64,000 nucleotides of DNA. Origin: a virus. Taxonomy: Duplodnaviria > Heunggongvirae > Uroviricota > Caudoviricetes. Both the position numbers and the translations under genes were made by a program. The stretch lies in the IMG/VR virus record IMGVR_UViG_3300011337_000358; one strand, 5' to 3'. Below the pieces are notes generated by a model, which had not been told where the DNA came from, searched no databases, and saw only the letters and a list, made by a program, of their open reading frames with translations. Shown here in pieces: positions 6,872 to 58,839 of this stretch; the stretch's first letter is position 1; each line of letters opens with the position of its first letter.

Positions 6872-7141
6872 ATGATAAATAGTATACAAAGGACATTTAT
6901 TATGAAAGAACATATCTACACATCATCCAAAGGAGAGAGTTTTTTATCATGGGATGATTGGGCACTCCAAACACTAAACGAAAGTGATTTGAGTGTTTAT
7001 CTTAGCCCCCAAGTAGAAGGTTCAACATTATCTGCTGATAAATTGGCTTTATATGCACGTTGGGTAGACGAAGAACAAATATTAACACACGTTGTTAAAG
7101 AAGATGATGTTATAATACAACAATCAAATGCACTCAAGTAA
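6872..7141 (+). CDS. Hypothetical small protein
   Basis: ORF; an alternative start 'MKEHIY' at 6902 is possible. Confidence 0.4.
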   Translation: MINSIQRTFIMKEHIYTSSKGESFLSWDDWALQTLNESDLSVYLSPQVEGSTLSADKLALYARWVDEEQILTHVVKEDDVIIQQSNALK

Positions 7142-7700
7142 TTTTATTACAGAATCTGCCGTAGATGAGTTAGCAAAAAAACTACCCTCATTGACTAAAC
7201 ACGACTATGATACCATTGATACATTAATGAGAAGTATTGCCAGTAGACATAGCATGAGTGGTAATGCATTACATGATTTGTTTGTAAAAAAATATAAAAG
7301 AACACCCGATAACTGGATTAAACATAAATTAGACGAAGGTGATGATTCAGATTTGCAACAAGAAGTTGATAAATTCTGCGATTGGGCATGTAAACGATTG
7401 CATATAAAATCTAAACCTGAAATTGAACTCAGTATGGATACTGAAGAAGCACAAAATAATCATCATACAGGTGGTCATCAAATGGGCGCTGATAGTATTT
7501 GGGTATATGTAAATAATCGTAACCTAGTTGATATACTACGCACAGTATTTCATGAATTGGTTCATGTGCGCCAAGGTGAATTAGATATGATTAAGCCGGG
7601 TGATAGTTACCCAGGTAGCCCAATTGAAGCAATGGCAGATATGCTTGCGGGCAAATACATCAAAATTTATGGTGAACAGAACCATCATATCTTTCAATAA
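7128..7700 (+). CDS. Hypothetical HExxH zinc-metallopeptidase-like protein
   Basis: 'VFHELVHVRQGE' HExxH motif. Confidence 0.45.
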   Translation: MHSSNFITESAVDELAKKLPSLTKHDYDTIDTLMRSIASRHSMSGNALHDLFVKKYKRTPDNWIKHKLDEGDDSDLQQEVDKFCDWACKRLHIKSKPEIELSMDTEEAQNNHHTGGHQMGADSIWVYVNNRNLVDILRTVFHELVHVRQGELDMIKPGDSYPGSPIEAMADMLAGKYIKIYGEQNHHIFQ

Positions 7701-7726
7701 TTGATTATTTGTGCTATAATGCACAG

Positions 7727-8323
7727 ATGATTAAGATTACAGTTCCATTACCCAAACAAATTACTGTTGCATGTAGCGGCGGTGTTGATAGTATGGCTGT
7801 AGTTGACTTTCTAAGTCGCAAACACGATGTAACTATTGCCCATTTTAATCATAGAACACAAAACGGTGAACGTGCCGCCCAATTTGTTTCTGGGTATTGT
7901 GGTGATAATAATATTCCTATGCTATACGGATCACCTCGCAGTGAACGCGGAACAAAAGAATCAATGGAAGAATATTGGCGCAGAGAACGATATGAATTCC
8001 TAAGCGAATTAGGACCGGTCATCACTTGTCATCATCTGGATGACTGTGTTGAGACATATGTTTGGTCTAGTTTACATGGTACAGCCAAAGTTATCCCACT
8101 CACTCGCAAAAATGTATTGCGCCCATTTTTAACTACACGTAAGAGTGAATTTGTTCGATGGTGTGAACAACATAAAGTTCCTTGGATTGAGGACGAATCA
8201 AACAAAGATACCAAATACACAAGAAATTACATTCGCAACGAAATGATGCCACATATATTGAAAGTCAATCCGGGCATTCATACTTTGGTCAAGAAGATTG
8301 TAGAAGGTAAGCAAAATACTTGA
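7727..8323 (+). CDS. tilS: PP-loop ATP pyrophosphatase; matches TilS (tRNA(Ile)-lysidine synthetase) catalytic domain better than QueC
   Basis: 'ACSGGVDSMAV' PP-loop. 'AHFNHR' matches the TilS 'HxNHxLR' block. 'CHHLDDCVETYVW' matches TilS 'HHLDDQAET'. 'WIEDESNKDTKYTRNYIRN' matches TilS 'W.EDESN.D..Y.RN.IR'. The QueC C-terminal CxxC…C zinc cluster is absent. An extended -10 'TGCTATAAT' lies at 7712-7720. Confidence 0.7.
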   Translation: MIKITVPLPKQITVACSGGVDSMAVVDFLSRKHDVTIAHFNHRTQNGERAAQFVSGYCGDNNIPMLYGSPRSERGTKESMEEYWRRERYEFLSELGPVITCHHLDDCVETYVWSSLHGTAKVIPLTRKNVLRPFLTTRKSEFVRWCEQHKVPWIEDESNKDTKYTRNYIRNEMMPHILKVNPGIHTLVKKIVEGKQNT

Positions 8324-8348
8324 CTTCTCTACGCAAGCCAAGTACAAT
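8320..8348 (+). promoter_or_regulatory. Promoter TTGACT-17-TACAAT
   Basis: Hexamers with a 17-nt spacer. Confidence 0.5.
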
Positions 8349-8371
8349 AACTAATTATTTAAGGAGAAACT

Positions 8372-8638
8372 ATGTCAGATTATAACAGAACCTTTAACGG
8401 TGAGGCAAAAATTAAACTAACTCAACTAGTAAATGAGGGCATGACAGTCCTACATGAGATTGATACATTGAATGGTGGATTGAATGACACTATTAAAGCA
8501 GTCGCAGAAGAACTTGAAATCAAGGCTTCTACTTTGAAGAAAGCAATTAAAATTGCTCACAAAGCAAGTCTCGGTCAGACTAACAAAGACCACGATGAAC
8601 TCAACACTATCTTGGAAACTGTGGGCAAAACACTTTGA
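8372..8638 (+). CDS. Hypothetical small protein
   Basis: ORF preceded by TTGACT-17-TACAAT (8320-8348) and RBS AAGGAGA. Confidence 0.55.
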   Translation: MSDYNRTFNGEAKIKLTQLVNEGMTVLHEIDTLNGGLNDTIKAVAEELEIKASTLKKAIKIAHKASLGQTNKDHDELNTILETVGKTL

Positions 8639-20304: not shown

Positions 20305-20985
20305 ATGAGTTATAATAAAACAAAAACAGATCCAGAGTTGGGTCAACGAGTACACGAACATCTAGTTAAGATGGGTGTTGAAACTCCCACTAATCCAAAC
20401 AACTATGACCGTAAAGAAAAGATAGATCATATTGAAGCGCATTTTACACACATTATGCGTATCTTGGGTCTTGACTTAACAGACGATAGTTTGATTGAAA
20501 CCCCTAAGCGTGTTGCCAAGATGTATGTCAACGAAATCTTTTGGGGACTTGACTATGACGCATTCCCTAAATGTACAACAGTTGACAACAAGATGCAATA
20601 CAACGAAATGGTTGTAGAGCGTAATGTTAACGTTCAATCTAACTGCGAACATCATTTTGTAGTCATCGATGGACTAGCTACTGTAGCTTATGTCCCTAAA
20701 CAAAAAGTTCTAGGGCTTAGTAAGATAAACCGTATCGTAGAATATTTTAGCAAAAGGCCTCAAATCCAAGAGAGGTTAACAGAGCAAATTTTTCACACCT
20801 TACAGTTCATCCTTGAAACAGAAGATGTTGCAGTTATGATTGATGCACAACACTATTGTGTAAAATCACGTGGTGTAGAAGATACGGGATCTAGTACTGT
20901 TACTTGTCGTTTAGGTGGCGGTTTCAAATCAGATCCTGCGGCAAGACAAGAGTTTTTACAGATTGCTAACAAAGGTTGCAAATGA
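20305..20985 (+). CDS. folE: GTP cyclohydrolase I (FolE)
   Basis: 'QSNCEHHFVVIDG' matches FolE 'CEHHLVPF'. 'GLSKINRIVEYFSKRPQIQERLTEQI' matches the FolE C-terminal block. Confidence 0.9.
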   Translation: MSYNKTKTDPELGQRVHEHLVKMGVETPTNPNNYDRKEKIDHIEAHFTHIMRILGLDLTDDSLIETPKRVAKMYVNEIFWGLDYDAFPKCTTVDNKMQYNEMVVERNVNVQSNCEHHFVVIDGLATVAYVPKQKVLGLSKINRIVEYFSKRPQIQERLTEQIFHTLQFILETEDVAVMIDAQHYCVKSRGVEDTGSSTVTCRLGGGFKSDPAARQEFLQIANKGCK

Positions 20986-21113
20986 TTATTACAATATTAG
21001 TTACAATAGCAGTAATAATAGCTATTGTTATAATGATTGCTACGATGCCAAATGCTAGTAGATGTAACGGAGACTGCAATCAAGGTCGTAACTGTACTTG
21101 TAGGGAGCAATAA
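20982..21113 (+). CDS. Small hydrophobic Cys-rich membrane peptide (43 aa)
   Basis: 'MIITILVTIAVIIAIVIMIA…CNGDCNQGRNCTC'; ATGA-coupled to folE. Confidence 0.35.
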   Translation: MIITILVTIAVIIAIVIMIATMPNASRCNGDCNQGRNCTCREQ

Positions 21114-21331
21114 TGGCACTGATATATAAAGAAGTAGAAGTTGATATTGATCTGAGCGATTTTGATACTGACGAATTAGTTGAAGAATTGGAAAACCGTG
21201 GCTCAGGTGTTATGGACTACGATGACGGCAAGGAAGTACTACAGTCGATTTACGAAAAACGTAGACTTGGACAAGACTATCAGCAAGAACTAGACCAATT
21301 AATTTGGTTAGGATTAGGGAGAGTTGTATGA
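21113..21331 (+). CDS. Hypothetical small acidic protein
   Basis: ORF. Confidence 0.45.
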
Positions 21332-21522
21332 TGAAATTTAAATTAGGTGACATGGTTAAAAAAGTGTCTGGTTCACAATGGCATGGAAAAGTAGTTGGTA
21401 CATACTCAACTGAGTTAACGCCTGAAGGATATGCAGTTGAGAGTCATACAGAAAAAGGTTCTGTACAAATATACCCTGCAAAGGCTCTTGAGTTATGGGA
21501 GTTGAATAATGGGATTTCGTAA
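21328..21522 (+). CDS. Hypothetical small protein
   Basis: ORF with ATGA overlap. Confidence 0.45.
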
Positions 21523-21745
21523 ACAAATGGACTACAATGCAGTACATCATCAAATCTATATGAGTGGTGTAGAATTACATAGTAATTACAATGATGGTTA
21601 CAATCAGTTTGAAATCAAAAAAGATTTACATCGTATCAAGTGGTTGTTAGATGAGATTATGGCTGACAGCCCTACATTTGCAGGGGAAGACGAATTCTTA
21701 AAAGAACATGAACAAACTAAGATGTGGAGAACTCTTTCAAAATGA
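21509..21745 (+). CDS. Hypothetical small protein
   Basis: ORF. Confidence 0.45.
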
Positions 21746-22215
21746 TTTTCAATCACATTAAAAAACTCAAACAAGATGGAAAGAAGATAGGTATTACTTT
21801 TAGTACATTCGACCTACTTCACGCAGGTCATATTGCTATGTTAAGTGAAGCAAAAAATCATTGTGATTATCTTATTTGTGGATTACAAACTGACCCCACG
21901 ATTGATCGACCTGAAACAAAGAATAAACCCATTCAAAGTATCGTAGAACGACAGATTCAACTTGCGGCTTGCCGCTATGTCGATGAAGTTGTTGTTTATC
22001 AAACTGAACAGGACCTTATTGACTTGTTACTTATTCTACCACTAGATGTTCGCATTTTGGGTGTAGAGTATGCAGATAAAGACTTTACCGGAAGATATGA
22101 AGGTAGTGAGCGTGGCATTGAAATTGTATTCAATGGTCGTGACCACAGTTTCAGCAGTAGTAGTTTACGAAAACGGGTAGCTGATGCCCAGATTATTAAC
22201 GTTCTTAATAAATAA
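21742..22215 (+). CDS. Cytidylyltransferase-like nucleotidyltransferase (TagD / glycerol-3-phosphate cytidylyltransferase-like)
   Basis: 'GITFSTFDLLHAGHIAMLSEAK' matches TagD 'VITYGTFDLLHWGHIKLLERAK'. Confidence 0.75.
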   Translation: MIFNHIKKLKQDGKKIGITFSTFDLLHAGHIAMLSEAKNHCDYLICGLQTDPTIDRPETKNKPIQSIVERQIQLAACRYVDEVVVYQTEQDLIDLLLILPLDVRILGVEYADKDFTGRYEGSERGIEIVFNGRDHSFSSSSLRKRVADAQIINVLNK

Positions 22216-22243
22216 CTATAGCGGTCTTTGGACATCATCCCGC

Positions 22244-22271
22244 TTTACAAATTCTGCTGCCTATGCTATAA
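22244..22271 (+). promoter_or_regulatory. Promoter TTTACA-16-TATAAT for queD
   Basis: Hexamers. Confidence 0.5.
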
Positions 22272-22289
22272 TCAACATAGGAGAAATTC

Positions 22290-22772
22290 ATGGCAAACAA
22301 AAAATTCTTTTCAACAAAGACATACAGACAAATAGGTCCTGTCGCTTATCGTCAATGGCGTGCTGACAGTCATTGTAACTTAATTCATGGCTATGCTATG
22401 AGTTTTCACTTTGAGTTTGAGGCTGATACGTTAGACGCACGTAACTGGGTAACTGACTTCGGTGGATTACGACCTCTCAAAGATAAACTAGAAGAATGGT
22501 TTGACCATACATTACTAGTTGCACAAGATGACCCAATGCGTGAACATCTATTAGAACTAGGTCGTTTAAAGCTAGCTAAAATTACAGAAGTAGAACGTAC
22601 TGGGTGTGAAGGTATTTCTGACTTTTTATATGAATACATTAACACAATTTTTTTGCCTAACTGCGGTAGTGAAGAAGCTAAACGTGTATGGTGCTGTAGA
22701 GTAGAAGTCCGCGAGACTGATAGTAACATGGCAGGACGTAGTGGTCATAGGGAAGATAGAGAGTTTGAATAA
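22290..22772 (+). CDS. queD: QueD / 6-pyruvoyl-tetrahydropterin synthase family protein (CPH4 synthase-like), variant metal site
   Basis: 'HCNLIHGYAMSFHFEFE' matches QueD 'CGRLHGHSFMVRLE' (C-x3-H-G-[HY]). Own promoter TTTACA-16-TATAAT at 22244-22271. Confidence 0.7.
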   Translation: MANKKFFSTKTYRQIGPVAYRQWRADSHCNLIHGYAMSFHFEFEADTLDARNWVTDFGGLRPLKDKLEEWFDHTLLVAQDDPMREHLLELGRLKLAKITEVERTGCEGISDFLYEYINTIFLPNCGSEEAKRVWCCRVEVRETDSNMAGRSGHREDREFE

Positions 22773-23395
22773 TGTTAGAAACAATTTGCGATACATTAGT
22801 TGAAGCATATAAACGCAACTGGATTACCAGTCGTGATGGCAATGTAAGTATTCGTCATCATGATCGGGATCATTTTTACATCACACCCAGTGGTGTGCGT
22901 AAGCAGACAATGCAACCGGATCAGTTTAAGAAGATTCGTATTGTTGGTAGTATGTTATGGGAAGAGCAACCATACACTGATATCAGTGCTAATCTTAAAC
23001 CGTCAGGTGAGCTACCACTACACCTCGGACTACAGCGAAAAATGGGACAGCACAATAATGATGTTAGAGTAGTAGTACATTTACATCCCACATACTGTGT
23101 TGCCGCTATGCACCGCGGCATTGAGTTGAGTAGTCTGGCTAATGACTTTCCTGAACTCAGTCGCTATACTAGCGTGGCACCCAATGTGGGTGATGTGCCT
23201 CCTATTAGCCAGGAACTTGCAGACCGCTGTCATGAAAATTTGGGACTAGATAAGAATGGTACTATTGCTTATGACATTGTAGGTATCAAAGGTCACGGTG
23301 TGGTCGCTATAGATACTAGCCCATGGAGGGCTTTTGAACATATTGAACGATTAGAACATATTTGTCAAATCGTATTAGCATCAGGGAAATATTAA
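22772..23395 (+). CDS. Class II aldolase/adducin-family protein (fuculose-1-phosphate aldolase-like)
   Basis: 'GELPLHLGL' and 'VVHLHPTYCVAAM' match the class II aldolase metal-binding blocks. Confidence 0.55.
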   Translation: MLETICDTLVEAYKRNWITSRDGNVSIRHHDRDHFYITPSGVRKQTMQPDQFKKIRIVGSMLWEEQPYTDISANLKPSGELPLHLGLQRKMGQHNNDVRVVVHLHPTYCVAAMHRGIELSSLANDFPELSRYTSVAPNVGDVPPISQELADRCHENLGLDKNGTIAYDIVGIKGHGVVAIDTSPWRAFEHIERLEHICQIVLASGKY

Positions 23396-23396
23396 A

Positions 23397-23810
23397 ATGT
23401 TAGACTGTATAATTATAGGTGATAGCATTGCAGTTGGTACAGCTATGGCTCGTCCAGAGTGTGTAAGTTATTCAAAAGGCGGCTGGAACAGTTGGCAATG
23501 GAACAAGGATTACTTAGCCAAAGCCTCTGCTCAACCTGCTCAAACTATAATCATTAGTCTTGGAGCCAACGACCACAAGGGTGTTAAGACTGAGCTTGAG
23601 TTACGTAAAATGCGAGAAGCAGTTAAGGGCCAGCGTGTGTTTTGGATCGATCCAGGTCAAGACCGTAAACCTATTCCACACGATGCAATTATTCGCATTG
23701 CTAAAGAATATGGTGATACAGTATTGCCTAGGCCAAAGAATCATATGAGTGCTGACGGAGTACATCCAACTGGTCGAGGTTATAAGATTTTAGGAGAGAT
23801 GGCAAAATGA
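23397..23810 (+). CDS. SGNH/GDSL-family hydrolase (short)
   Basis: Block I 'IIGDSIAVG', block III 'GANDH' and block V 'DGVHPT'. Confidence 0.6.
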   Translation: MLDCIIIGDSIAVGTAMARPECVSYSKGGWNSWQWNKDYLAKASAQPAQTIIISLGANDHKGVKTELELRKMREAVKGQRVFWIDPGQDRKPIPHDAIIRIAKEYGDTVLPRPKNHMSADGVHPTGRGYKILGEMAK

Positions 23811-24442
23811 GTTATATTGTAGGATCATTACCTCCTATTAAGTGTTGGATAAAACGTGAATTTCTTTACAACTTTGAAAAAGGTCACGGAGAATTAGAAC
23901 CTGCCATATGGGTAAGTCTTAAAGCATTACGTGGACAAGTGTTTCGTATTGAATCATTATTACCCAATTACGGAGCACTCTACGATAAACTGCCCATTCA
24001 TGCCTATGTATGGCAAGACAACTACACAGGCAATCTACCTATAGATACTTTACAACTCTGGGACTGCATGGGTTATCGCTTTACTATCATTGAAAAAATA
24101 GGTTTACGTAATCTAGGCGTTAAGTTCTTGGGCAAAGATAAAGAATGGCATCACGGAACTTATTTATTTACAGTAGATTTTTGTGCTGATGGAATGGATG
24201 TAGATACAGGTTTTACTGAAGTAGCAGAAGAACACAAGTCGTTTAATTTTATTAGATTAGAAAATGGACAGTTTGCTTGTCAACCCAATAATCGATGTTT
24301 GTGGTACGACCAAAGTTTGATTTCAGGTACAGTGAAATTTCCAGACTTTAAAGCCGCACAGACCATATTTACAGTAGATGGTACTCGCAAGTGGAGTGCA
24401 GGAGATGATTGGTTTTATTCTATTGAGGAAAAAAATGAATAG
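23807..24442 (+). CDS. Hypothetical protein
   Basis: ORF. Confidence 0.5.
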   Translation: MSYIVGSLPPIKCWIKREFLYNFEKGHGELEPAIWVSLKALRGQVFRIESLLPNYGALYDKLPIHAYVWQDNYTGNLPIDTLQLWDCMGYRFTIIEKIGLRNLGVKFLGKDKEWHHGTYLFTVDFCADGMDVDTGFTEVAEEHKSFNFIRLENGQFACQPNNRCLWYDQSLISGTVKFPDFKAAQTIFTVDGTRKWSAGDDWFYSIEEKNE

Positions 24443-24626
24443 TTTAGAAAAAATATGGGCTAGAGCAACTGGTCATTTAATGGGTAACACTGATGATGAT
24501 AGACCCGATGTACCTATTCTTACTTTACGAGAAGCAAGAATTGCATTGTTCCTAAAAACTTTCTGGATTATACTACATGTGATAACATGTTGTTTCATCA
24601 TAGCAAATACATTACGTCATTGGTAA
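24435..24626 (+). CDS. Hypothetical small membrane protein
   Basis: C-terminal TM 'FWIILHVITCCFIIANTL'. Confidence 0.35.
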   Translation: MNSLEKIWARATGHLMGNTDDDRPDVPILTLREARIALFLKTFWIILHVITCCFIIANTLRHW

Positions 24627-24629
24627 AAT

Positions 24630-24827
24630 ATGAACAAAAAAATTACAGAACTATGGGAACAGGCCGCTCAACGAGATGACTTACTAGACGAAAAACGGTA
24701 TGAGCATTTTGCTGAATTATTAATTAGAGATTGTGCAAAACAAGTTAATCATCTGGCTAAACAAGGTGGCGGAACTTGGGGCGAAGTCATTCTAGAAAAC
24801 TACAATATAAGTGTATATAAAAAATGA
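24630..24827 (+). CDS. Hypothetical small protein
   Basis: ORF. Confidence 0.4.
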   Translation: MNKKITELWEQAAQRDDLLDEKRYEHFAELLIRDCAKQVNHLAKQGGGTWGEVILENYNISVYKK

Positions 24828-25672
24828 GTCATTTAAAAGTATCAGAATTATTTTACAGTATCCAGGGAGAAGGTCGCTATATGGGAGTGCCAAGTATTTT
24901 CCTAAGAACATATGGATGCAATTTTACATGCGGTGGCTTCGGTATGCCTAAGGGAGAAATGAGTAATGAGAGAGATGTTATCGCAATTAAAGCAGAAGAT
25001 TATACAGATTATAAATCCTTACCACTTGTCAGTACTGGATGTGATAGTTACGCATCTTGGGACCCTCGCTTTAAACATCTTAGTCCTGTTATCTCTACCG
25101 ATTCTATTGCTGACAGTATTATGGATATACTTCCTCACAAGCGTTGGATGGATGAACATCTTGTTATTACAGGTGGTGAACCTTTGCTTGGATGGCAAAG
25201 AGCGTATCCAGACTTACTTTCAAACGAGAAAATGAGAGCATTGAAAGAGATTACATTTGAAACTAATGGCACACAAGAACTAAGTAAAGACCTTACTAAC
25301 TATCTTCATCAATGGAAGATCAGCCGTGAAAATAACGCACTTACATTCAGTGTGAGTCCTAAACTTAGTATCAGCGGTGAGAAGTGGGAAGAAGCAATAT
25401 GTCCACAAGTTGTTCGTCAATATGAAAGTGTTGGCTTTGTATATCTTAAATTTGTTATTGCTACTAAAGAAGATGCGATTGAGGCAGATAAAGCAGTTAA
25501 AGAATTTCGTACAGCTGGATTCAGAGGTCCAATATACTTCATGCCATGCGGTGGTGTAGAAAGTATCTATAATTTAAATGCTAGAAATGTTGCTATTGAA
25601 GCAATGAATCGTGGCTATCGCTATAGTGATAGATTACAGGTGCCTCTATTTAAAAATGAATGGGGGACATAA
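24824..25672 (+). CDS. queE: QueE-family radical SAM 7-carboxy-7-deazaguanine synthase
   Basis: 'ELFYSIQGEGRYMGVPSIFLRTYGCN' matches QueE 'EMFQTLQGEGYFTGVPAIFIRLQGC'. The Cys cluster 'GCNFTCGG' is atypical. Confidence 0.8.
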   Translation: MSHLKVSELFYSIQGEGRYMGVPSIFLRTYGCNFTCGGFGMPKGEMSNERDVIAIKAEDYTDYKSLPLVSTGCDSYASWDPRFKHLSPVISTDSIADSIMDILPHKRWMDEHLVITGGEPLLGWQRAYPDLLSNEKMRALKEITFETNGTQELSKDLTNYLHQWKISRENNALTFSVSPKLSISGEKWEEAICPQVVRQYESVGFVYLKFVIATKEDAIEADKAVKEFRTAGFRGPIYFMPCGGVESIYNLNARNVAIEAMNRGYRYSDRLQVPLFKNEWGT

Positions 25673-25875
25673 TGACAGAAACAAAAAAACGCACAGTGGT
25701 AAGGATGCTTACCTATAGATTGACAGCATGGTTATTCACAATCTTTTGGACTTATCTGTTTACAGGTAATCTAGGTAACTCAGCCGGCTTTGCTACTGCA
25801 TTACATATATTATTAAGTATAGACTATTACATTCACGAACGCATTTGGTTGAGAATCAAATGGGGTAAGGAATAA
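25672..25875 (+). CDS. Hypothetical small membrane protein
   Basis: Two hydrophobic segments. Confidence 0.4.
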   Translation: MTETKKRTVVRMLTYRLTAWLFTIFWTYLFTGNLGNSAGFATALHILLSIDYYIHERIWLRIKWGKE

Positions 25876-25876
25876 T

Positions 25877-26101
25877 ATGCCATTAGATCAAGTCCAATCA
25901 TATGATTACTTTTATGACAAATTGATAGGTACTGAACTTAAGTTTACTTGGCTACCCCAAACTTGTGACATATCAGGTAAGCGTATTTGGTTAAAGTATG
26001 GGTATAGGATGACTAGGATGATTACTGGACCGGGCACACCTGTCTTTGAGTATAGATGGCACGATAAGAATACCCATATTATATGGAAACTAAAAAGGTA
26101 A
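25877..26101 (+). CDS. Hypothetical small protein
   Basis: ORF. Confidence 0.4.
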   Translation: MPLDQVQSYDYFYDKLIGTELKFTWLPQTCDISGKRIWLKYGYRMTRMITGPGTPVFEYRWHDKNTHIIWKLKR

Positions 26102-26105
26102 ATAT

Positions 26106-26285
26106 ATGTATGAATTAAGATATCTTGTCCGAAACGGTTGGGATGGACCTGAACAAGTGTTACAATATAGAACTCAACATGAAGTAACAGACTATAGTGG
26201 CACAGATCCTAAAACAGGTGGATTCATTAGAAAAATAGAATGGACTGAATGGAAGTATGTCCCCACCGTAGATGAAACAAAATGA
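26106..26285 (+). CDS. Hypothetical small protein (59 aa)
   Basis: ORF coupled to neighbours. Confidence 0.3.
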   Translation: MYELRYLVRNGWDGPEQVLQYRTQHEVTDYSGTDPKTGGFIRKIEWTEWKYVPTVDETK

Positions 26286-27631
26286 AATTATACGATAAAC
26301 GAATTGCTTTTTTGATTAGTGACCAACATTTTATACCGCATGGTGGTATAGGTAGTTTTGCTAAAGGCTTTACTGAGATGTGTGGTCGTATCGGGTGGAA
26401 GGTTGATATTATATTAGACAAAGCACCTACTAATTTATTCAGTGATTTAATTATTAGTCTAGGTGCTAACATTGTTTACCCTGATGAACCACTACGATAC
26501 AGTGACCATACTGCTACGTTTGCATTTAGCGATACTATCAACTTTGAAAAGATTATCAACTTCCGTAAAGCAATATTAAAAGCATTTGAAACAAATGTAT
26601 ACGACATGATTGTGTGTAATACACAAGAGGCAATGACTGCTAGTTATGCCATGACGGTTAACAAGTATATACCTGTTGTATTCTATACTCATTTGCACAG
26701 TATGATTTTTCGTGAAAGTCAAGGTAGTGATGTATTTTTAGACAGCTATCACAATTTCTATAACAAACATATGGAGTTTACTGATATCATTATAGGCACA
26801 CAAAGTCAAAAGAACATTGACGAACTAACTAAGTTTGGTGCAACTAACTGTCAGTTATTGCGTATGCCAATGAGTGAACGTGGTCTATTAGAACGATACA
26901 ATGGATCTAAGAAGGGTGTACTATTCATTGGACGATGGGAAGAAGGTAAGAACCCTGAAGCATATATTCGTGTAATGAAAGAATGTAAATTACCATGTAA
27001 GGTAATGACAAATAGTAACGGTGCAAAAAAGTTTGAGAAGGCATTCAGTGACGCAGGTATTACTGATTATGAAATCAAAGCCGGTATTACTGGACAAGAG
27101 AAAGTAGATTTTGTTCGTGGTGCTAATGTATTCTTTATGCCCAGCCTTCGTGAAAACTATCCATTTGCATTTTTAGAATGTCTTGGTCATATGCCTTGTG
27201 TTGTGCTTGATAATCAAGATTGGTCAGACAACTTTGAGCGAGAATACTATCATCAAGTTTCAATTGGTTCAGCAGCCGACATGATTAAAACATTGTATGG
27301 CACAAATCAATTATCTTCAGTATTAGACTATGTGAAACAATTAGATGATGAGGTAGCTCAAGGTTGGATTACATTCTTAGATAATTTTGCAGGCAAGCGT
27401 AGCAACACAAATGCCGCAAAGATTAATACATATGATACAGTTAAGTATAGTGATTATATCAAGGATTTAAATCGTACACATTTAGCACGTGAGGACTTTG
27501 AAAGCGTACTCGCAAACAAATATAAGTTTTTAAATGTCTGCTACACAGATAGTGACACTTACCTAAGCAAAGACCCAACATATAAACCAGTCGAGGAAGA
27601 AACAGCATTAAGTCTGTTTGAAGGATTATGA
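26282..27631 (+). CDS. GT-B glycosyltransferase, family 4-like
   Basis: N-terminal 'ISDQHFIPHGGIGSF' (GT4 N-domain) and C-terminal 'FMPSLRENYPFAFLECLGHMPCVV' (E-x7-E motif). Confidence 0.7.
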   Translation: MKLYDKRIAFLISDQHFIPHGGIGSFAKGFTEMCGRIGWKVDIILDKAPTNLFSDLIISLGANIVYPDEPLRYSDHTATFAFSDTINFEKIINFRKAILKAFETNVYDMIVCNTQEAMTASYAMTVNKYIPVVFYTHLHSMIFRESQGSDVFLDSYHNFYNKHMEFTDIIIGTQSQKNIDELTKFGATNCQLLRMPMSERGLLERYNGSKKGVLFIGRWEEGKNPEAYIRVMKECKLPCKVMTNSNGAKKFEKAFSDAGITDYEIKAGITGQEKVDFVRGANVFFMPSLRENYPFAFLECLGHMPCVVLDNQDWSDNFEREYYHQVSIGSAADMIKTLYGTNQLSSVLDYVKQLDDEVAQGWITFLDNFAGKRSNTNAAKINTYDTVKYSDYIKDLNRTHLAREDFESVLANKYKFLNVCYTDSDTYLSKDPTYKPVEEETALSLFEGL

Positions 27632-28458
27632 AAAAAGTTTTAATTACAGGTAACTCAGGTTACATTGGCAGTCATCTAAGTAAGATGTTAATGGATACAA
27701 TGAAATATGAAGTTCATGGATTAGATATCCGTGACCCGCAATATGCATTGAATAGATTTTATCGTCAAGATATCAATAGACAATTTTCATTAGATGAAGA
27801 ATTTGATGCAGTCATTCACTTAGCCGCATTAGTTAATGTAGGTGAAAGTGAACAGATACCCATTCAATATTATATCACTAACTTAAATGGCACAATGAAT
27901 GTCATTAACAAAGTAAAGACTAAAAACTTTATATTTGCAAGTACGGGTGCCGCAGTTGGTTGCGAAAGTGCTTATGGTATCAGTAAACGTGCCGCAGAAG
28001 ATGTAGTCAAAGAATACTGCACACATCACAATAAAAAAGATTATACTATCTTTAGATTTTATAATGTGATTGGTACTACCGTTGTTCCACCTACAAATCC
28101 AGATGGATTAATGTATAACTTAATGAAAGCACGTGAAACAGGTGAGTTTACTATCTTCGGTAATGACTATGACGTTAGTGATGACGGTACATGTGTGCGT
28201 GATTATGTACATGTGAATGAAATTTGTGACTCATTAGCACAGGCTATCGAAAAGCCTAGTAACCAAATTGAATCATTGGGTCACGGAGTGGGATGGACAG
28301 TTAAAGAGATTGTCGATGAGTTTCAAAAAGTCAATCACGTTGACTTTGAAGTAAAATACGGCCCAAGAAGAAAGGGTGATCTTGCTAGTTCTGTACTAGA
28401 AGATGTTTCACCCTATATGCGTAATCTATATACTATGGATGAGTTGCTTAAGGTTTAA
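27628..28458 (+). CDS. NAD-dependent epimerase/dehydratase (extended SDR; UDP-sugar 4-epimerase-like)
   Basis: Rossmann 'ITGNSGYIGSHL' and catalytic 'YGISK' (YxxxK). Confidence 0.75.
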   Translation: MKKVLITGNSGYIGSHLSKMLMDTMKYEVHGLDIRDPQYALNRFYRQDINRQFSLDEEFDAVIHLAALVNVGESEQIPIQYYITNLNGTMNVINKVKTKNFIFASTGAAVGCESAYGISKRAAEDVVKEYCTHHNKKDYTIFRFYNVIGTTVVPPTNPDGLMYNLMKARETGEFTIFGNDYDVSDDGTCVRDYVHVNEICDSLAQAIEKPSNQIESLGHGVGWTVKEIVDEFQKVNHVDFEVKYGPRRKGDLASSVLEDVSPYMRNLYTMDELLKV

Positions 28459-28459
28459 T

Positions 28460-28933
28460 TTATAGACCAATCTTGGGTGGATACATTGGGCCAGACTTTA
28501 TTCGTTCACCACCGTCAAAGTAACTAATTTCTACTGGTAATTCTTTCCAGCCTAATCTATGTGCAGCCATGATACGATGATTACCTTCGTTTACCCAGGC
28601 ACTGCCATCATAGGCCACATTGATAAAAGGTTTGTATTCTTCACTAGAGTGTGAATGTAATGGTAGCTTGCCGGTGTCCTTCATTATTTTCATAATTGCA
28701 ATAAGATCACCTTGACGCACATTTTGTTGTTCGTTTCGCATACCGGGTATTTGTCTTAGTAAGTTAACAGGAATTTCAACTTTTCTGACAGTAGCAGTTG
28801 TCTTTCCCATGTAGGGCAAACCATTACGATCAGGACTTTTTTGCTTGGCATACGCAATAGCATCGTTTAGCCATTCCTCATTAGGCACATCAACACTAAG
28901 TGTTCCTTCAGTTATAAATTCTTTTGCTCTCAC
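28460..28933 (-). CDS. ParB/sulfiredoxin-superfamily protein with T4-type capsid-targeting N-terminus
   Basis: 'GNHRIMAAHRLGWKELP' matches ParB 'GERRWRAAKLAGL'. N-terminus 'MRAKEFITE|G' resembles the T4 capsid-targeting sequence / gp21 cleavage site. Confidence 0.55.
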   Translation of the reverse strand: MRAKEFITEGTLSVDVPNEEWLNDAIAYAKQKSPDRNGLPYMGKTTATVRKVEIPVNLLRQIPGMRNEQQNVRQGDLIAIMKIMKDTGKLPLHSHSSEEYKPFINVAYDGSAWVNEGNHRIMAAHRLGWKELPVEISYFDGGERIKSGPMYPPKIGL

Positions 28934-29604
28934 ATTGATCCTTTAGAATTAACAAACCAGGGGTCAACTATAACTAATTCTCCATTACTACGTTGCATGA
29001 CATTTTCGGTGTGCAAGTCCCAACCAAATTTGTTTATTCTACCCGATTGATATAATAGTTTCATTACACTAAACAAGGTAGCATACGTCTTATAAAAAGT
29101 AACACCTTGCTGTGTCATTGCATTATCTATAAGTTTAGCCATTTTAGATGATATTGGGCTAGAGAAGAATTTCCAAGTTTCAGGATCAGTTAGTGAAGGT
29201 AAGATTTGTTGCCAAGTCTCACCTGTAACAGCATAGTCACTTAATATCCAGACCATTGCTTCTTCAACACTGTTCTTTTTAATAGGCTGAAGATGTTCCA
29301 TGTCAATTTGTATGTAATCCTCACCGGCAATATCGATTGTATTCATTTCATTAAATATAGGTAAACAAGAAATCTCAGGATGATTTTCACAGAATTCGTA
29401 AAACTTTTTAAATACTTTTTCAGCGTGACCACTAGGATCATCTGGCATTAATATTTTAATCACATGACTAGTATCTTTAGCCCATACTCTTGCATCAGCT
29501 CCGCTACCAATATGTTTGTAACCTAGTGATTTTAAATGCGCGGCAATTTCTTTGAAGGCTGGTCCTGTTGCAGCCTCATCTACTGCAAATTCATTGGCTC
29601 TCAT
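28930..29604 (-). CDS. Protein-kinase-like fold protein with capsid-targeting N-terminus (candidate injected kinase)
   Basis: Gly-rich loop 'IGSGADARVW'. Catalytic-loop-like 'WDLHTENVM' (D-L-H-x-x-N). 'LVIVDPWF' is DFG-like. N-terminus 'MRANEFAVDE|A'. Confidence 0.55.
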   Translation of the reverse strand: MRANEFAVDEAATGPAFKEIAAHLKSLGYKHIGSGADARVWAKDTSHVIKILMPDDPSGHAEKVFKKFYEFCENHPEISCLPIFNEMNTIDIAGEDYIQIDMEHLQPIKKNSVEEAMVWILSDYAVTGETWQQILPSLTDPETWKFFSSPISSKMAKLIDNAMTQQGVTFYKTYATLFSVMKLLYQSGRINKFGWDLHTENVMQRSNGELVIVDPWFVNSKGSM

Positions 29605-29783
29605 TTCTTGCGACCCCTAAACCCTACTGGCATCTGCAAATCATTAACGGGAAACATTGCTTTGAACCACTCATCAGTACCAGGCTTAGCAGTAATTTTG
29701 CTACGGTCTATAGGCACAGAAGATGTAGGTTTTCCTCTATGGTCGGTAACTCCTGCAAGTCTTTTAAGTTGATCTATGTTCAT
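29601..29783 (-). CDS. Hypothetical small protein
   Basis: ORF coupled within the minus-strand operon. Confidence 0.4.
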   Translation of the reverse strand: MNIDQLKRLAGVTDHRGKPTSSVPIDRSKITAKPGTDEWFKAMFPVNDLQMPVGFRGRKK

Positions 29784-30334
29784 AGACTCTTACCCCAGCG
29801 TGTGTTAATCACATTCCAGTTGATAATCTTCCACTGTTCAGCCAAATACTTTTTCTTATCAGCACCGTAGTCTAATATCCACGCATGTTCCCACCAATCA
29901 ACTAATAACAATATATCATTGCGTACTTCATGGTTCTTAATTGTTTTAATTTTACCATCAGTTGCTAAATATACCCACCCACTACCTTGTATCTTCATTG
30001 CTTCAGTTTCAAACTGTGACTTCATATTATCGTATGAGCCAAAATGTTTGTTAATAAAGCCCATCATGGGGCCGTTTGGATTGTTTTTATTTCTTACTTC
30101 ACGGAACTGAGGGAACAATGTATTATGTAAGAATGCACCTGCATAGTTAAATTCTTTATCTCCGATATCTTTGTTATATCTTTCAGCATAGCCATGTGCT
30201 AACTTGCCATAGTGTAAGTCTATAGTGTCTACCGACAAAACCGGACTTAGTTCTTTTGGCTCAAAATTAAGCTGAATGATTTCTATATCTTGAGGTTTTG
30301 ACTTATCCTCAAGTAACTGAATTAAATCACGCAT
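29780..30334 (-). CDS. Fe/Mn superoxide dismutase-like protein
   Basis: C-terminal 'VDWWEHAWILDYGADKKKYLAEQWKIINW' matches SOD 'DVWEHAYYL…Y……INW' (Asp/His metal ligands). 'HYGKLAHGYAERYNK' and 'AFLHNTLF' resemble the SOD N-terminal His blocks. Length is 184 aa. Confidence 0.6.
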   Translation of the reverse strand: MRDLIQLLEDKSKPQDIEIIQLNFEPKELSPVLSVDTIDLHYGKLAHGYAERYNKDIGDKEFNYAGAFLHNTLFPQFREVRNKNNPNGPMMGFINKHFGSYDNMKSQFETEAMKIQGSGWVYLATDGKIKTIKNHEVRNDILLLVDWWEHAWILDYGADKKKYLAEQWKIINWNVINTRWGKSL

Positions 30335-32115
30335 CAGTGTTTCAATAATAATGTAGAAATGATGTTAGGATCGTTAGCACTGATATCACCTTCACCGGGT
30401 GCAACGATAACATTGTACTTCATACCGGCTGGTATTGATTTACGTTTAGCCATGTACTGATTATAGTCTAATATAGAGTTGGCACTTAATCCATACTCTT
30501 TTGCAAGACGATTCTTTAGTTCAGGTAACTTATCAGGTTGTACTTGCCATTGGCCTTCTGACCCCTTAACTAAGTTTTTCTTTTCGTCCTTAACTAATAA
30601 ATCTTGGAACAAGTCATCTGGAACAATACGACTATTCTTAGTTTTATCTAAGTTAGCATCACTTGCCTTAACTTGTTTCTCTTGTGATGTATGAGCACCT
30701 TCACTCCAATTGATAATAAAGTTAGGTGGCTTCTGACCTAATGCGGCACCAGCCATCTTTGTGTAAGCATAGAACTTAGTATCAGGATGCTTTGCAGCCA
30801 TCTTTAATGCCAAGTCTAAATATTCTGGGCTGAAGAAGTCACCAGCATCATGCCAACGAATAGTAGTTTGCCAACCTTTAGGGAATTTCTTATCACCCTT
30901 TTGACCAGCTTGTTCTTCTTTGCTAATCTCACTACTTAATTGATTGAAGAACCCGTCTGGATCATTCAATAGATATGTTAATATTCTTCCGTCACTTTGC
31001 CATGCGTTCTTAAACTGAATTTTTCCGCCCTTCATAGCAAAACAATCTATTTTACATGAGCCTGCGCCCGGGCATGTATTAACAATGATTAGTTTATTTG
31101 TTTGTTCGTCTAGTGCAATACCAGTCAATGCCGCAAAGCCAACGTTGAAGAATTGTTCAAACTCTCCGTTACTATGCTTCATCTTTTCGTTTTGCTTTAG
31201 TAATGATTTAGGGCGTTGTGACAATGTTTTCTTAACTGCATCCTCATCATATGTTGCACCATCTGGACCTAAGTATTCAACTACACTACTACGGTGGATA
31301 TAAGGCATTTTGTATCTATCTGTTTTTGTTTTACCAGATACATATTTTTCATTACCCTTTTTATCTACCTTAACATTACCTGCTTTGTCTGTATCAGGAG
31401 TACCAACAATACGTTTCATGTAATCTTGGAACTCATCGCCACCAAACTCACGGCTACTTGCTGGCAGTTTAGTTGCTTCTTCTAAGCCAGATAGTTTGCG
31501 AATTCTATCTAAGCCTTCCGCCACACCTTCATTTGCACTTTGACTAGCCAATTTATAAATATACGCAGTACCGTTGGGTAATAGATACGTAGTATAATTT
31601 CCTATACCCCTCTCACCCATTTGAGCCTGTTGAATTTTTATCATTTTTGCGCCGCGCGGCGTTGGGCCATCTTTAGGTACCAGCATACCTTTATATTCTT
31701 TGCCTCCATGGTGCACAACTATACCAGTGTCGCTTCGTTCTACTTTTTCTGCTGTATCAACATTTTGATTTGGCATCTGACCACCAGATTTTTCTGCACT
31801 GGCTTGAAATCCTTGTTGAGCCATTTGTTGTGCGGCACTAGGTGACATTTGGCCATCAGCACCAAGACTAACTCTTGCGTGTGCAGAGCCAGCTGACCCT
31901 AACGCACCCATTGCACCTAATGCCATTGCACCTGTTGCGGCTGCTTTTTTCCAATTAATTTCGTCAAGTTGCTCTTCCGTCATACCTTCTTCTGATTCTT
32001 CATCGGGCATATCACCCGCTTTAGTAACGAATTGCTGAGGTGTCATAATTTGGATGCCACTAGGTGCTCCAGGCATTTTTGGCTCTACGCCTTCGAATAG
32101 TTCTTTGAAATTCAT
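30334..32115 (-). CDS. Large internal-protein-like protein (593 aa) with capsid-targeting N-terminus; Alt-like by architecture only
   Basis: N-terminus 'MNFKELFE|GV' (compare T4 Alt 'MELITELFDE'). Gly/Ala-rich linker. Shares 'EEQLDEIN' with ORF 2-955. Confidence 0.5.
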   Translation of the reverse strand: MNFKELFEGVEPKMPGAPSGIQIMTPQQFVTKAGDMPDEESEEGMTEEQLDEINWKKAAATGAMALGAMGALGSAGSAHARVSLGADGQMSPSAAQQMAQQGFQASAEKSGGQMPNQNVDTAEKVERSDTGIVVHHGGKEYKGMLVPKDGPTPRGAKMIKIQQAQMGERGIGNYTTYLLPNGTAYIYKLASQSANEGVAEGLDRIRKLSGLEEATKLPASSREFGGDEFQDYMKRIVGTPDTDKAGNVKVDKKGNEKYVSGKTKTDRYKMPYIHRSSVVEYLGPDGATYDEDAVKKTLSQRPKSLLKQNEKMKHSNGEFEQFFNVGFAALTGIALDEQTNKLIIVNTCPGAGSCKIDCFAMKGGKIQFKNAWQSDGRILTYLLNDPDGFFNQLSSEISKEEQAGQKGDKKFPKGWQTTIRWHDAGDFFSPEYLDLALKMAAKHPDTKFYAYTKMAGAALGQKPPNFIINWSEGAHTSQEKQVKASDANLDKTKNSRIVPDDLFQDLLVKDEKKNLVKGSEGQWQVQPDKLPELKNRLAKEYGLSANSILDYNQYMAKRKSIPAGMKYNVIVAPGEGDISANDPNIISTLLLKH

Positions 32116-32804
32116 TTCTTGTGGTTCCTAATAAATTGTTCTGCTAGCATTACTAATTCTTGCATTTGCTCAATAGATTCACAATGCCATCTACGTAAAC
32201 TCTTATTAATATTGCTGTTTGGATCACGTGCTGTTTTAGCACTTGTACGATGTTTCTTCATACCGCGCATTCTAGCGCAAAAACTAGCACGGCGCTTTGC
32301 GTCCTTGCTACCCTTTTTAATCTTGCTTGGCTTTTTAGTAACTGCTGTTTGAATCTTGCTACCAGGATGACTACGGCGATAACTACTTACAGATTTTTTA
32401 CTCATCCCACCTACACGTTTGTTATTGTGCTTTGACCAATTCTCGCCTTCCGCCACACCTTGACTTAATAATTTTTTAACAGATATTGGACCTGATTGAT
32501 TTTCTGCACCGGTTAAAAATTCATTTCCCCATGGGGTTATCCAACCATCAAATTCAATATCATTGCCTTGAACCATAATATCATTATTACCATCAAGGTT
32601 TTGATATCCATTCAACTCTTTGTACCATTTTCTTAATGATTGTAACTTGTATGGACCTTTGTAGCCTTGTTTTTTCAAAATAGAAATAATTTCCGGAGTA
32701 AATCCAACTGGTTGACCCTCAGATACTTTCTCTTTTTTGCTAATAGCAATAGCGGCTTGTTGTGCTGGATTTGCGGCTTCTGTTAAAATTTCTGTTATTC
32801 TCAT
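32112..32804 (-). CDS. Basic internal-protein-like protein with capsid-targeting N-terminus
   Basis: N-terminus 'MRITEILTE|A'. Very basic C-terminal half. First gene of the minus-strand operon. Upstream 'GATAAATA' (rc of 32860-32867) is T4 late-promoter-like. Confidence 0.5.
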   Translation of the reverse strand: MRITEILTEAANPAQQAAIAISKKEKVSEGQPVGFTPEIISILKKQGYKGPYKLQSLRKWYKELNGYQNLDGNNDIMVQGNDIEFDGWITPWGNEFLTGAENQSGPISVKKLLSQGVAEGENWSKHNNKRVGGMSKKSVSSYRRSHPGSKIQTAVTKKPSKIKKGSKDAKRRASFCARMRGMKKHRTSAKTARDPNSNINKSLRRWHCESIEQMQELVMLAEQFIRNHKK

Positions 32805-32822: not shown

Positions 32823-32851
32823 TTGACTTTATTGCGTAGTTGTGCTACACT
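32823..32851 (+). promoter_or_regulatory. Promoter TTGACT-17-TACACT for uvdE. The divergent region also carries rc 'GATAAATA' (32860-32867) for the minus-strand late operon.
   Basis: Hexamers; T4 late promoter consensus is TATAAATA. Confidence 0.5.
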
Positions 32852-32880
32852 GTATATATTATTTATCACTTTGGGCTTTT

Positions 32881-33909
32881 ATGTACACAAATCAATCAGT
32901 CAAACGTATCGGCTTTGCTTGCAAATGGGCAGAAATCAACAAGAAAGGTGAAATTGCTTCAGCCGAAGGTCTTAACACTGGCGGCACAACTCATGCTTGG
33001 GCAAAGCGTAATAGTCGTAATGTAGTAGAAGAAAAGATTATGGATGTTGCAAAACGCAATATTATGAATACACATGCACTAGTTAAACGTGTCGCTACAC
33101 TAGAACCACAATTACGTATGTTGCGTCTTACTAGCGATATGCTGAGTTTTTACACACTAGATGAATATAAAGGCTTTTGGCAAAGTAGTGATGTACAAAA
33201 CAGCTTGGCTCGATGGTTTGCCCCGATCGGGGAAACAGCACGTGCCAATGATGTTCGTCTTAGTTTTCACCCTGACCAGTTTGTAGTTTTAGCAAGCGAC
33301 CGTGAAGAAGTAGTAAATAAGAGTATTGAAGAATTTGAATATCATTGTGACATGGTTCGTTGGATGGGCTATGGCAAAGAGTTTCAAGACTTCAAAGTAA
33401 ATGTACATATCTCGGGACGTAAAGGCCCACAAGGCATCAGGGATGTGTACAACAGATTGTCGCCAGAAGCGAGAAACACACTAACACTAGAGAATGAGGA
33501 ATACACACATGGACTTACTGACTGCTTATCATTATCTGACCTCGTACCTACGGTCATGGACATACATCACAATTGGATTCGTGAGGGAGAATATATTTCC
33601 CCCAATGATGACAACGTTAAAAAGGTTATTGATAGTTGGCGCGGTATTAGGCCTACTTTACATTACTCCGTCAGCCGTGAAGATGTACTTGTCGGGCATT
33701 CCGGATCACAGTTACCCGATCATGGTGCGTTGATTGAATCTGGATACAGTAAGCAAAAACTTCGGGCACATAGTGATTACTATTGGAACGAAGCTGTGAA
33801 CGATTGGGCATTGACATTCATTGATAAATTTGATATGATGTGTGAATCGAAGGCAAAGAATCTTGCCAGCTTTAAATTATTAGAGAGATATAAATGTTTG
33901 ACAAAATAA
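32881..33909 (+). CDS. uvsE: UV DNA damage endonuclease (UvdE/UvsE) homolog
   Basis: The ordered blocks match B. subtilis UvsE: 'RIGFACKW' / 'RFGFVSNA', 'VRLSFHPDQFVVLAS' / 'LRTSFHPNQFTLFTS', 'VNVHISG' / 'INIHIGG', 'TLTLENEE' / 'RMTLENDD', 'DIHHNW' / 'DFHHF', 'RAHSDYV' / 'RSHADYV'. Promoter TTGACT-17-TACACT at 32823-32851. Confidence 0.8.
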   Translation: MYTNQSVKRIGFACKWAEINKKGEIASAEGLNTGGTTHAWAKRNSRNVVEEKIMDVAKRNIMNTHALVKRVATLEPQLRMLRLTSDMLSFYTLDEYKGFWQSSDVQNSLARWFAPIGETARANDVRLSFHPDQFVVLASDREEVVNKSIEEFEYHCDMVRWMGYGKEFQDFKVNVHISGRKGPQGIRDVYNRLSPEARNTLTLENEEYTHGLTDCLSLSDLVPTVMDIHHNWIREGEYISPNDDNVKKVIDSWRGIRPTLHYSVSREDVLVGHSGSQLPDHGALIESGYSKQKLRAHSDYYWNEAVNDWALTFIDKFDMMCESKAKNLASFKLLERYKCLTK

Positions 33910-57213: not shown

Positions 57214-57261
57214 CCTAAATATTATAATTTATTGCGTATTAGTAGTATAATAAATACATAC

Positions 57262-57313: not shown

Positions 57314-57319
57314 AAACAA

Positions 57320-57772: not shown

Positions 57773-57795
57773 TATAATAGAATTTCAATAAATAA

Positions 57796-57817: not shown

Positions 57818-57832
57818 AACTTAAATAAAATT

Positions 57833-58836: not shown

Positions 58837-58839
58837 CAG

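Follow-up and report, generated by a model that had tools for sequence, protein, structure and literature searches.

Background

That a capsid-targeting sequence (CTS) is common to diverse internal head proteins is textbook knowledge for the T-even phages. The T-even internal proteins form a diverse set with the CTS as their only common part (PMC3012670). In T4, the first 10 residues are enough to package foreign proteins, residues 4 and 7 driving targeting and residues 8 and 10 (I and E) driving processing, and the scaffold and small core proteins, which have heads of the same leader type, become degraded (PMC9026906). Here we examined a 64,000-nucleotide (nt) stretch of phage DNA (IMG/VR record IMGVR_UViG_3300011337_000358), referred to below as the window and always meaning the stretch at its full length. 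At least seven genes of the window, at three loci, encode proteins that begin with a short leader closely resembling the T4 CTS, and we argue that this leader probably serves the same purpose.

Other phages also carry proteins inside the head. The Dar proteins of P1 (DarB, DdrB) are head-internal and packaged through an N-terminal signal, the first 30 residues of DarB sufficing for packaging (PMC9024508). Their signals have no sequence similarity to the leader described here, and P1 has a stepwise loading hierarchy and no cargo-wide T4-type (I/L)xE leader. Phages of the phiKZ/SPN3US kind have many head-internal ejection proteins and a gp21-related protease that cuts after Glu (PMC5694885); in these phages, however, the cleavage motif is (A/S)-x-E, most propeptides exceed 100 residues and many cargoes do not have a short leader in common. 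Entry into the host together with the DNA is predicted or known for polyvalent proteins, whose domains include ParB/sulfiredoxin (ParB/Srx), which P1 DdrB also carries (PMC5512222). We found no published description of a leader system of the present type for RaK2/Phosso-like phages.

Leader genes of the window

The leader comprises 8-10 N-terminal residues with the consensus M-R-A-x-E-F-(I/L)-x-E, and its C-terminal end is a gp21-type (I/L/V)-x-E cleavage motif (Table 1, where a slash marks the end of the leader). Most of the leader genes stand in a block of six minus-strand genes at 28460-32804, hereafter the cassette, whose neighbouring ends overlap by 1-4 nt in the list of open reading frames (ORFs) and which are thus translationally coupled. 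A preliminary description of this DNA had quoted six similar N-termini; all six are present in the ORF list and by direct translation, although the strings of the 230-aa, 593-aa and superoxide dismutase (SOD)-like proteins had been attached to the wrong coordinates. The gene at 7128-7700, which was outside that list, is the best non-listed match in the window to the leader scoring matrix described below, and its orthologues in 80 related loci begin with MRYTEFIIES, MRATEFITES, MRFNELLSES and similar sequences. Two diverged copies of this gene, 84% and 74% identical to that of the window, occur on the 524,565-bp contig IMGVR_UViG_3300027749_002876, near opposite contig ends and in opposite orientation (L237, 509120-517671; L260, 12227-20799). 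This may reflect a chimeric or concatenated contig or a duplication of the gene.

Table 1 Leader genes, the accompanying small ORF and candidate promoter elements in the window
Feature	Position	Strand	Remarks
190-aa protein with HELVH (HExxH) motif	7128-7700	+	Diverged leader MHSSNFITE/S
157-aa ParB/sulfiredoxin-fold protein	28460-28933	-	GTG start; leader MRAKEFITE/G at 28907-28933
224-aa protein-kinase-like enzyme	28930-29604	-	Leader MRANEFAVDE/A at 29575-29604
60-aa ORF	29601-29783	-	Without leader
184-aa Fe/Mn superoxide dismutase	29780-30334	-	N-terminal extension MRDLIQLLE/D at 30308-30334
593-aa GP88 protein	30334-32115	-	Short leader MNFKELFE/G at 32092-32115
230-aa protein, first cassette gene	32112-32804	-	Leader MRITEILTE/A at 32778-32804
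474-aa protein, just upstream of ClpP	59716-61140	+	Leader MRALEFLTE/A at 59716-59742
GATAAATA	6874-6881	+	Upstream of the small gene preceding 7128-7700
GATAAATA	32860-32867	-	Candidate element of a T4-late-like promoter, 56 nt before the first ATG of the cassette
GATAAATA	59690-59697	+	19 nt upstream of the 474-aa gene

The window belongs to an uncultured jumbo phage of the T4 superfamily with a GC content of 37%, and its nearest cultured relatives are Phosso, Agrobacterium phage Atu_ph07 and the RaK2/PBECO4 group. Its family-B DNA polymerase (8635-11343) has 49% identity to the enzyme of Sinorhizobium phage Phosso, 46% to that of Atu_ph07 and 44% to those of RaK2-like phages. No deposited phage matched the cassette at the nucleotide level (megablast against 50,697 phage records) and an exact-protein look-up returned only contigs of ~4 kb or less. 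IMG/VR holds many relatives, among them contigs of 230-525 kb; loci from related phages are cited below by L numbers.

Conservation and add-on character of the leader

Per internal residue position, a strict leader pattern, M[RK]xx[ED][FILVM][ILV]xE, has a background of 5e-5 in the window and 1.3e-4 in related loci. The 106 genes of the window should therefore contain ~0.01 strict N-terminal matches, compared with three strict matches and four variants seen, and among the 2103 genes of the related loci L001-L095 there are 117 that begin with the pattern, compared with ~0.3 expected. A position-specific scoring matrix (PSSM) of the leader, trained on relatives only with the window excluded, gave 26.0, 23.4 and 23.0 bits for three window ORFs (23.4 bits being the 230-aa protein) against a background mean of -42.6 (standard deviation 11.2). 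The kinase leader came next, a one-residue insertion lowering its score to 4.0 bits. On these pattern statistics, together with the diversity of the cargo, we rejected chance similarity and remnants of paralogy.

Among 95 unique leaders, positions left free by the search pattern had Ala3 in 70% and I, L or V at position 7 in 100%. These leaders are encoded by 91 distinct DNA sequences, with ATC, ATA, ATT, TTA, CTA or GTA at position 7 and TTT/TTC, GAA/GAG and AGA/CGT/CGA elsewhere, a synonymous codon variation which indicates that selection acts on the peptide. Homologues were examined in a protein database of 5.8 billion clusters. In the 474-aa family 115 of 119 members have the leader, as do 84 of 117 in the ParB/Srx family and 84 of 116 in the kinase family, and many of the leaderless entries are truncated or mis-started. 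The N-terminal similarity is thus kept in related homologues, which the preliminary description had named as a check on its reading. M1, R2 and E9 were invariant in an alignment of 39 sequences reaching down to 50% identity.

Several features mark the leader as what appears, from structural models and alignments, to be a disordered add-on to the cargo. It is the sole low-confidence N-terminal segment in both AlphaFold models obtained, with residues 1-8 below a pLDDT of 50 in the 157-aa protein (92 overall) and residues 1-11 of low confidence in the 474-aa protein (81.6 overall). The SOD domain begins at residue 18, which is aligned with residue 4 of canonical SOD. The most distant ParB/Srx homologues are without a leader, and another carries inserted residues right at the junction. 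Longer proteins of the kinase family have extra domains between leader and kinase, and the leader stays at the extreme N-terminus.

Correspondence with T4 and with the head modules of relatives

In the T4 record the N-termini of internal proteins II and III (IPII/IPIII) read MKTYQEFIAE/A, that of IPI MKTFKEFTST, and those of the head proteins gp22, gp24, gp67 and gp21 MLKEQLIAE/A, MAKINELLRE/S, MEGLIE/A and MNEPQLLIE/T, respectively. The window consensus xEF(I/L)xE/A corresponds to the last six residues of the IPII/IPIII CTS, and the core EF(I/L)xE/A is literally common to the two. The likeness extends to the arrangement as a whole: a leader of ~10 residues ends in (I/L)-x-E followed by a small residue and heads unrelated proteins, scaffold and vertex proteins have similar N-termini, an ADP-ribosyltransferase (ART) is among the cargo (Alt in T4, an ART-PolyVal protein in the related locus L060), and the composition of the locus varies among relatives (PMC3012670, PMC9026906). 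The differences are nonetheless considerable. The lineage is a very distant one of jumbo phages, the capsid protein of PBECO4 being ~34% identical to T4 gp23 over part of its length, and no leader-bearing cargo is homologous to a T4 internal protein. Leader residues 2-4 are R-A-x where T4 has K-T-Y-Q, which leaves the leader shorter by one residue. The cargo consists mostly of full-size enzymes (157-826 aa) rather than small basic proteins, seven leader genes occur in 64 kb with up to nine per cassette in relatives, the ART is of the Tox-ART-HYD2/PolyVal type instead of the Alt type, and packaging is here a prediction.

The head machinery that such a leader would need is present in relatives. 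The head modules of PBECO4 and Phosso are T4-like and run from the portal through small core proteins, gp21-type protease and scaffold to the capsid protein; a T4 gp21 query sequence matched T4 records at 99% and also PBECO4. The gp21-type protease lies beside the major capsid protein in PBECO4, Phosso and more than 70 metagenomic relatives, and every related capsid locus long enough to check encodes it. Scaffolds of relatives begin with MLDALKTLFE, MNQGLKELLE or MSKLEKLLKE, and their small core ORFs with MKARDLLVE or MRAEEFEG. Leader genes also occur close to the head genes: MRISEILE/A heads a gene beside the capsid genes in L105, a 185-aa MRLTEILTE/S protein is encoded in one head module with portal, protease, scaffold and capsid genes in L113, and protease and leader-bearing genes stand on the same contig in L105, L108, L111 and L113. 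The gp21-like protease of L113 is encoded at 8246-8881. Phosso protein XYS97485, adjacent to the protease, begins with MRASELFE/F, which makes Phosso a candidate for a cultured phage with the leader. The 64-kb window itself contains no gp21-family protease, and BLAST of all window proteins against the head-module loci gave only two unrelated shared genes; judging by its relatives, the window's own genome presumably encodes the protease elsewhere.

Two labels in the Phosso record (PV764938.1; L097) look like public-record misannotations. The gp21-type protease at 2773-3405, which is 46% identical to PBECO4 gp21, is labelled 'scaffolding protein', and the gene in the scaffold position (7577-8989) carries the label 'Rad50 ATPase'.

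Cargo proteins in the window

The three domain assignments of the preliminary description, kinase-like, SOD-like and ParB/Srx-like, all held. The 224-aa protein matched phrog_15752 (T7 gp0.7-type kinase) at 3.9e-11 and, weakly, Kinase-PolyVal, and PF18762 is recorded for its homologues. In 69 sequences G33xG35, K50, D196-L-H-x-x-N201, D214 and the E10/A11 junction were invariant or nearly so, the catalytic loop of the window protein reading D196-L-H-T-E-N201, and by these residues the kinase is predicted to be catalytically intact. The SOD matched Sod_Fe_C at 4.3e-24; its Sod_Fe_N match, at 1.5e-4, did not reach the Pfam cutoff. It aligned with Porphyromonas gingivalis SOD 1ues from residue 18 and has kept all four metal ligands, namely the His of HYGK, the His of LHN and the Asp and His of DWWEH.

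For the 157-aa protein, which had no Pfam match, the fold assignment comes mainly from comparison of its model with the PDB. The top ~40 Foldseek matches all belonged to the ParB/Srx superfamily, with weak E-values (best 4e-3) and a probability of 1.0, and included sulfiredoxin, Noc, ParB, PadC, SbnI and SerK, with Osa further down the list. The protein also matched the ParB-like phrog_8071 at 8e-4, and its invariant EGNHRI motif (E116-G-N-H-R120) fits the Arg-containing G-x-x-R motif. We regard it as NTPase/nuclease-like.

The remaining leader proteins are less readily classified. The 230-aa protein has a basic C-terminal DUF6321 domain (Pfam, 4.9e-11), which in PHROG matches forms the C-terminal end of many phage proteins and in T4-like cyanophages lies within proteins annotated 'virion' or 'structural'. 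The 593-aa protein matched Pfam GP88 at 1.1e-23 over residues 306-480 and consists, in order, of the leader, a variable Ala/Gly-rich N-part, the peptide IRKLSGL and the conserved GP88 domain. The 474-aa protein belongs to no family and gave only faint nuclease-like fold matches, and the 190-aa protein had no significant Pfam family. Sequence searches of the PDB with the 157-, 224-, 593- and 474-aa proteins returned nothing significant.

Variable cassettes in relatives

The cassette is bounded by a UvdE gene (32842-33909) and an epimerase/glycosyltransferase pair (26282-28458). Cassettes of relatives hold three to nine leader genes, the identity and order of which vary around a constant GP88-type gene. 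Forty representative leader proteins fell into 16 similarity groups, with the leader at the extreme N-terminus whatever domain comes after it. Pfam matches among the representatives included DUF6321 (11 members), DUF6934 (five), GNAT acetyltransferases (three), a GH19 lysozyme-like enzyme (L093), a DnaJ-type zinc finger and LysM. A cytidine/dCMP deaminase in L082 has a looser leader, and the 128-aa ART-PolyVal protein of L060, with the leader MRAREFIAE/S, is by analogy the direct counterpart of T4 Alt.

This repertoire resembles that of the polyvalent proteins, in which Kinase-PolyVal, ART-PolyVal, ParB/Srx, GNAT, lysozyme and HExxH peptidase-like domains likewise occur and for which delivery with the invading DNA has been proposed (PMC5512222). 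There, 2-15 domains are fused and separated by MPTase, and delivery uses MuF or portal fusions; in the present lineage most domains are encoded singly, every such gene having a leader of its own, and delivery would use the head protease and scaffold. Most cassette genes have one recognisable domain, with two or three in a small number (GNAT with DUF6934, for instance), so that they were not classed as polyvalent proteins, which have 2-15 fused domains and usually MPTase; only the domain repertoire is common to both.

Some fused forms were also observed. A number of 285-390-aa proteins of the kinase family (P0253, P0259, P0283, P0289 and others) carry the extra domains between leader and kinase mentioned above, and in P0134 a ParB/Srx domain is fused to GNAT. 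These longer proteins are intermediates between solo cargo and polyvalent-type fusions.

Proposed packaging route and alternative explanations

The T4 match, the conservation in homologues, the modularity and add-on character of the leader, the head machinery of relatives and the analogue of Alt are the reasons for regarding the leader as a CTS. The capsid-targeting reading of the preliminary description is supported by the first two of these, by the unrelatedness of the cargo and by leaders on the scaffold and core proteins of relatives. The leader genes would be expressed during head building, and each protein would dock, by its leader, onto the gp22-like scaffolding core while the prohead assembles. 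A gp21-family prohead protease would then cut after the Glu of (I/L/V)-x-E and free the mature enzyme inside the shell, where it would remain in the DNA-filled head, to leave with the DNA at the next infection and act before phage gene expression. We consider it likely that the leader works in this way, the enzymes being packaged, cleaved and ejected with the DNA as in T4.

Targeting to the prohead core and cleavage could also serve proteins that act only inside the head, as core or scaffold accessories, in condensing DNA or as protectants of packaged DNA, and that become degraded or stay behind instead of being injected as effectors. The leader type is that of scaffold and small core proteins, which are degraded in T4 (PMC9026906), the DUF6321 part is strongly basic like the T4 internal proteins, the scaffold-like motif of the GP88-type protein (see below) is flanked by cleavage-type sites, and a SOD could protect packaged DNA or the virion. 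The enzymes of the cassettes fit this explanation poorly, given that the catalytic residues of the kinase are all intact and that ART-PolyVal, GNATs, a deaminase and a GH19 lysozyme are encoded beside it; enzymes that need ATP, NAD, acetyl-CoA or peptidoglycan make little sense inside a sealed capsid. The hypervariability of the cassette, moreover, fits an arms race. A purely in-head role is therefore unlikely in our judgement.

Two further explanations dispense with packaging. The leader might be a degron or adaptor tag for phage Clp proteins that times the destruction of the cargo, since the window encodes ClpX (55790-56995), ClpS (57833-58138) and ClpP (61210-61797) and the 474-aa leader gene lies directly upstream of clpP. 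The other six of the seven leader genes, however, lie well away from the clp genes, the leader has the core of the T4 CTS with the gp21 cleavage motif at its end, and leaders of the same type head scaffold and core proteins in the head modules of relatives. The ClpS N-degron class is defined by an N-terminal F, L, W or Y, which the leader does not resemble, and we give this explanation very little credence. Alternatively, the common N-terminus could be a nucleic-acid element, either a translation initiation signal (downstream box) or a recombination sequence for shuffling the cassette. The genes are translationally coupled, AGA and GCA dominate codons 2 and 3, and internal-protein loci of T-even phages are thought to shuffle at conserved ends. 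The 91 distinct DNA sequences among 95 leaders, with their synonymous codons, argue against an element of this kind, and the isolated genes at 59716 and 7128 carry the leader as well. An explanation at the DNA level was rejected on the codon variation and seems most improbable.

Several observations weigh against packaging, cleavage and ejection by a T4-like CTS, although we favour it. Four of the leaders are off consensus (MRANEFAVDE, MNFKELFE, MRDLIQLLE and MHSSNFITE). The head module of the window's own lineage (gp21, gp22, gp23) was not recovered, no cassette contig being found among three capsid-protein scans (queries: a Phosso and PBECO4 alignment, L108 and L141), each with more than 600 relatives of which 80 were kept. 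Cyanophage virion proteins with DUF6321 had no CTS-like N-termini, and DUF6321 cargo can therefore reach virions by other routes. Searches of cultured phages with tblastn returned nothing for the 474-aa protein and, for the 593-aa protein, only partial GP88-domain matches in unrelated phages, and thus gave no cultured homologue of either protein as an experimental handle. Docking, cleavage, retention in the head, ejection and the activities in the host are all steps that we infer from sequence.

Expression timing belongs with these points. The preliminary description had proposed GATAAATA as a T4-type late promoter of both leader operons, and the element is indeed present at both sites. It occurs six times in the window, however, compared with 5.9 expected, and the remaining copies precede a GTP cyclohydrolase I gene, the gene for ribosomal protein S21 and a small ORF. 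The T4 late-promoter octamer TATAAATA is under-represented (two copies compared with 9.1 expected), and TG precedes five of the six GATAAATA sites. The copy upstream of the cassette is kept in 21 of 33 relatives, yet conservation there extends to the whole intergenic region; before the 474-aa gene, L009, L010 and L011 have retained ATAAATA while the flanks vary. On its chance-level count, the rarity of TATAAATA and its position before housekeeping-type genes, GATAAATA was rejected as evidence of a specific late promoter, and late expression of the leader genes is a plausible prediction with weak promoter support.

A second, scaffold-like motif

In PBECO4, Phosso and ~50 relatives the gp22-like scaffold has (I)R(R/K)L(A/S)G(L/I) as its C-terminus (for example L097, 7577-8989; L096, 6604-7719; and L111-L139). 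The same peptide occurs inside every GP88-type cassette protein. The window copy, IRKLSGL (31483-31503, minus strand), lies at the junction of the variable N-part and the conserved GP88 domain, and across 37 unique GP88-type homologues the position of the motif ranges from residue 61 to residue 508. It is flanked on both sides by (V/L)xE sites in 31 of the 37, as in VAE/GLDRIRKLSGLEE/ATKLPA. The leaderless 60-aa ORF of the cassette, conserved in L017, L018, L022 and L023, has an N-terminus, MNIDQLKRLAGV, that holds another motif like the scaffold C-terminus, LKRLAGV (29748-29768, minus strand). Should the scaffold bind the shell through this terminal peptide, proteins with the motif would enter the head by imitating the scaffold. 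A more far-reaching proposal is that this lineage has two capsid-targeting signals, the T4-type leader and a mimic of the scaffold C-terminus, that the GP88-type protein is a self-dismantling polyprotein and that the two signals together load a set of at least 16 kinds of enzyme, encoded in the cassette and exchanged rapidly, with the first injected SOD among them; we offer it tentatively and regard it as rather doubtful in its entirety.

Novelty and significance

What is new is the literal conservation of the leader in a remote lineage of uncultured jumbo phages, its scale, with seven genes in 64 kb and at least 16 groups of cargo, and an overlap of the enzyme cargo with the polyvalent-protein repertoire, to which a SOD is added; the scaffold-mimic motif is possibly new as well. 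The preliminary description had regarded the cargo domains as new types of injected effectors, which is fair for the SOD and overstated for ParB/Srx, kinase and ART, because polyvalent proteins and P1 DdrB already provide predicted virion cargo with these domains (PMC5512222).

If the leader works as in T4, a nine-residue tag would mark the capsid-borne, first-arriving proteins of huge uncultured phages, and unannotated gene content would become a readable list of first-strike effectors (kinase, SOD, ParB/Srx, ART, GNATs, lysozyme and deaminase). The targeting and cleavage logic of EF(I/L)xE would then have been kept across the T4 superfamily despite capsid proteins that are about one-third identical, and the leader could be used as a portable packaging tag for phage protein delivery. 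An injected SOD would suggest that oxidative stress at DNA entry is something that phages must counter. The system also connects the T4 internal proteins with the polyvalent-protein domain set, two subjects so far treated apart.

Neighbouring genes and other observations

The 474-aa leader gene stands between a gene for a SprT-like HExxH protein (59176-59685) and clpP, within a proteostasis and translation cluster at 55790-61797 that encodes ClpX, S21 (56992-57213), Hsp20 (57320-57772), ClpS and ClpP. On the other side of the cassette, the region 20305-28458 encodes GTP cyclohydrolase I, a cytidylyltransferase, PTPS/QueD and a class II aldolase and has a weak radical-SAM (QueE-like) match; a glycosyltransferase and an NAD-dependent epimerase follow this gene set and adjoin the cassette. 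The region looks like a module for deazaguanine and/or sugar modification of DNA.

In Synechococcus phage S-SCSM1 (L295) a 106-aa ORF at 2755-3075 begins with MKTFKQFMSE/S, which resembles the N-terminus of T4 IPI, and sits between two annotated virion proteins, one with DUF6321. T4-like cyanophages may therefore also have small proteins with CTS-like N-termini.

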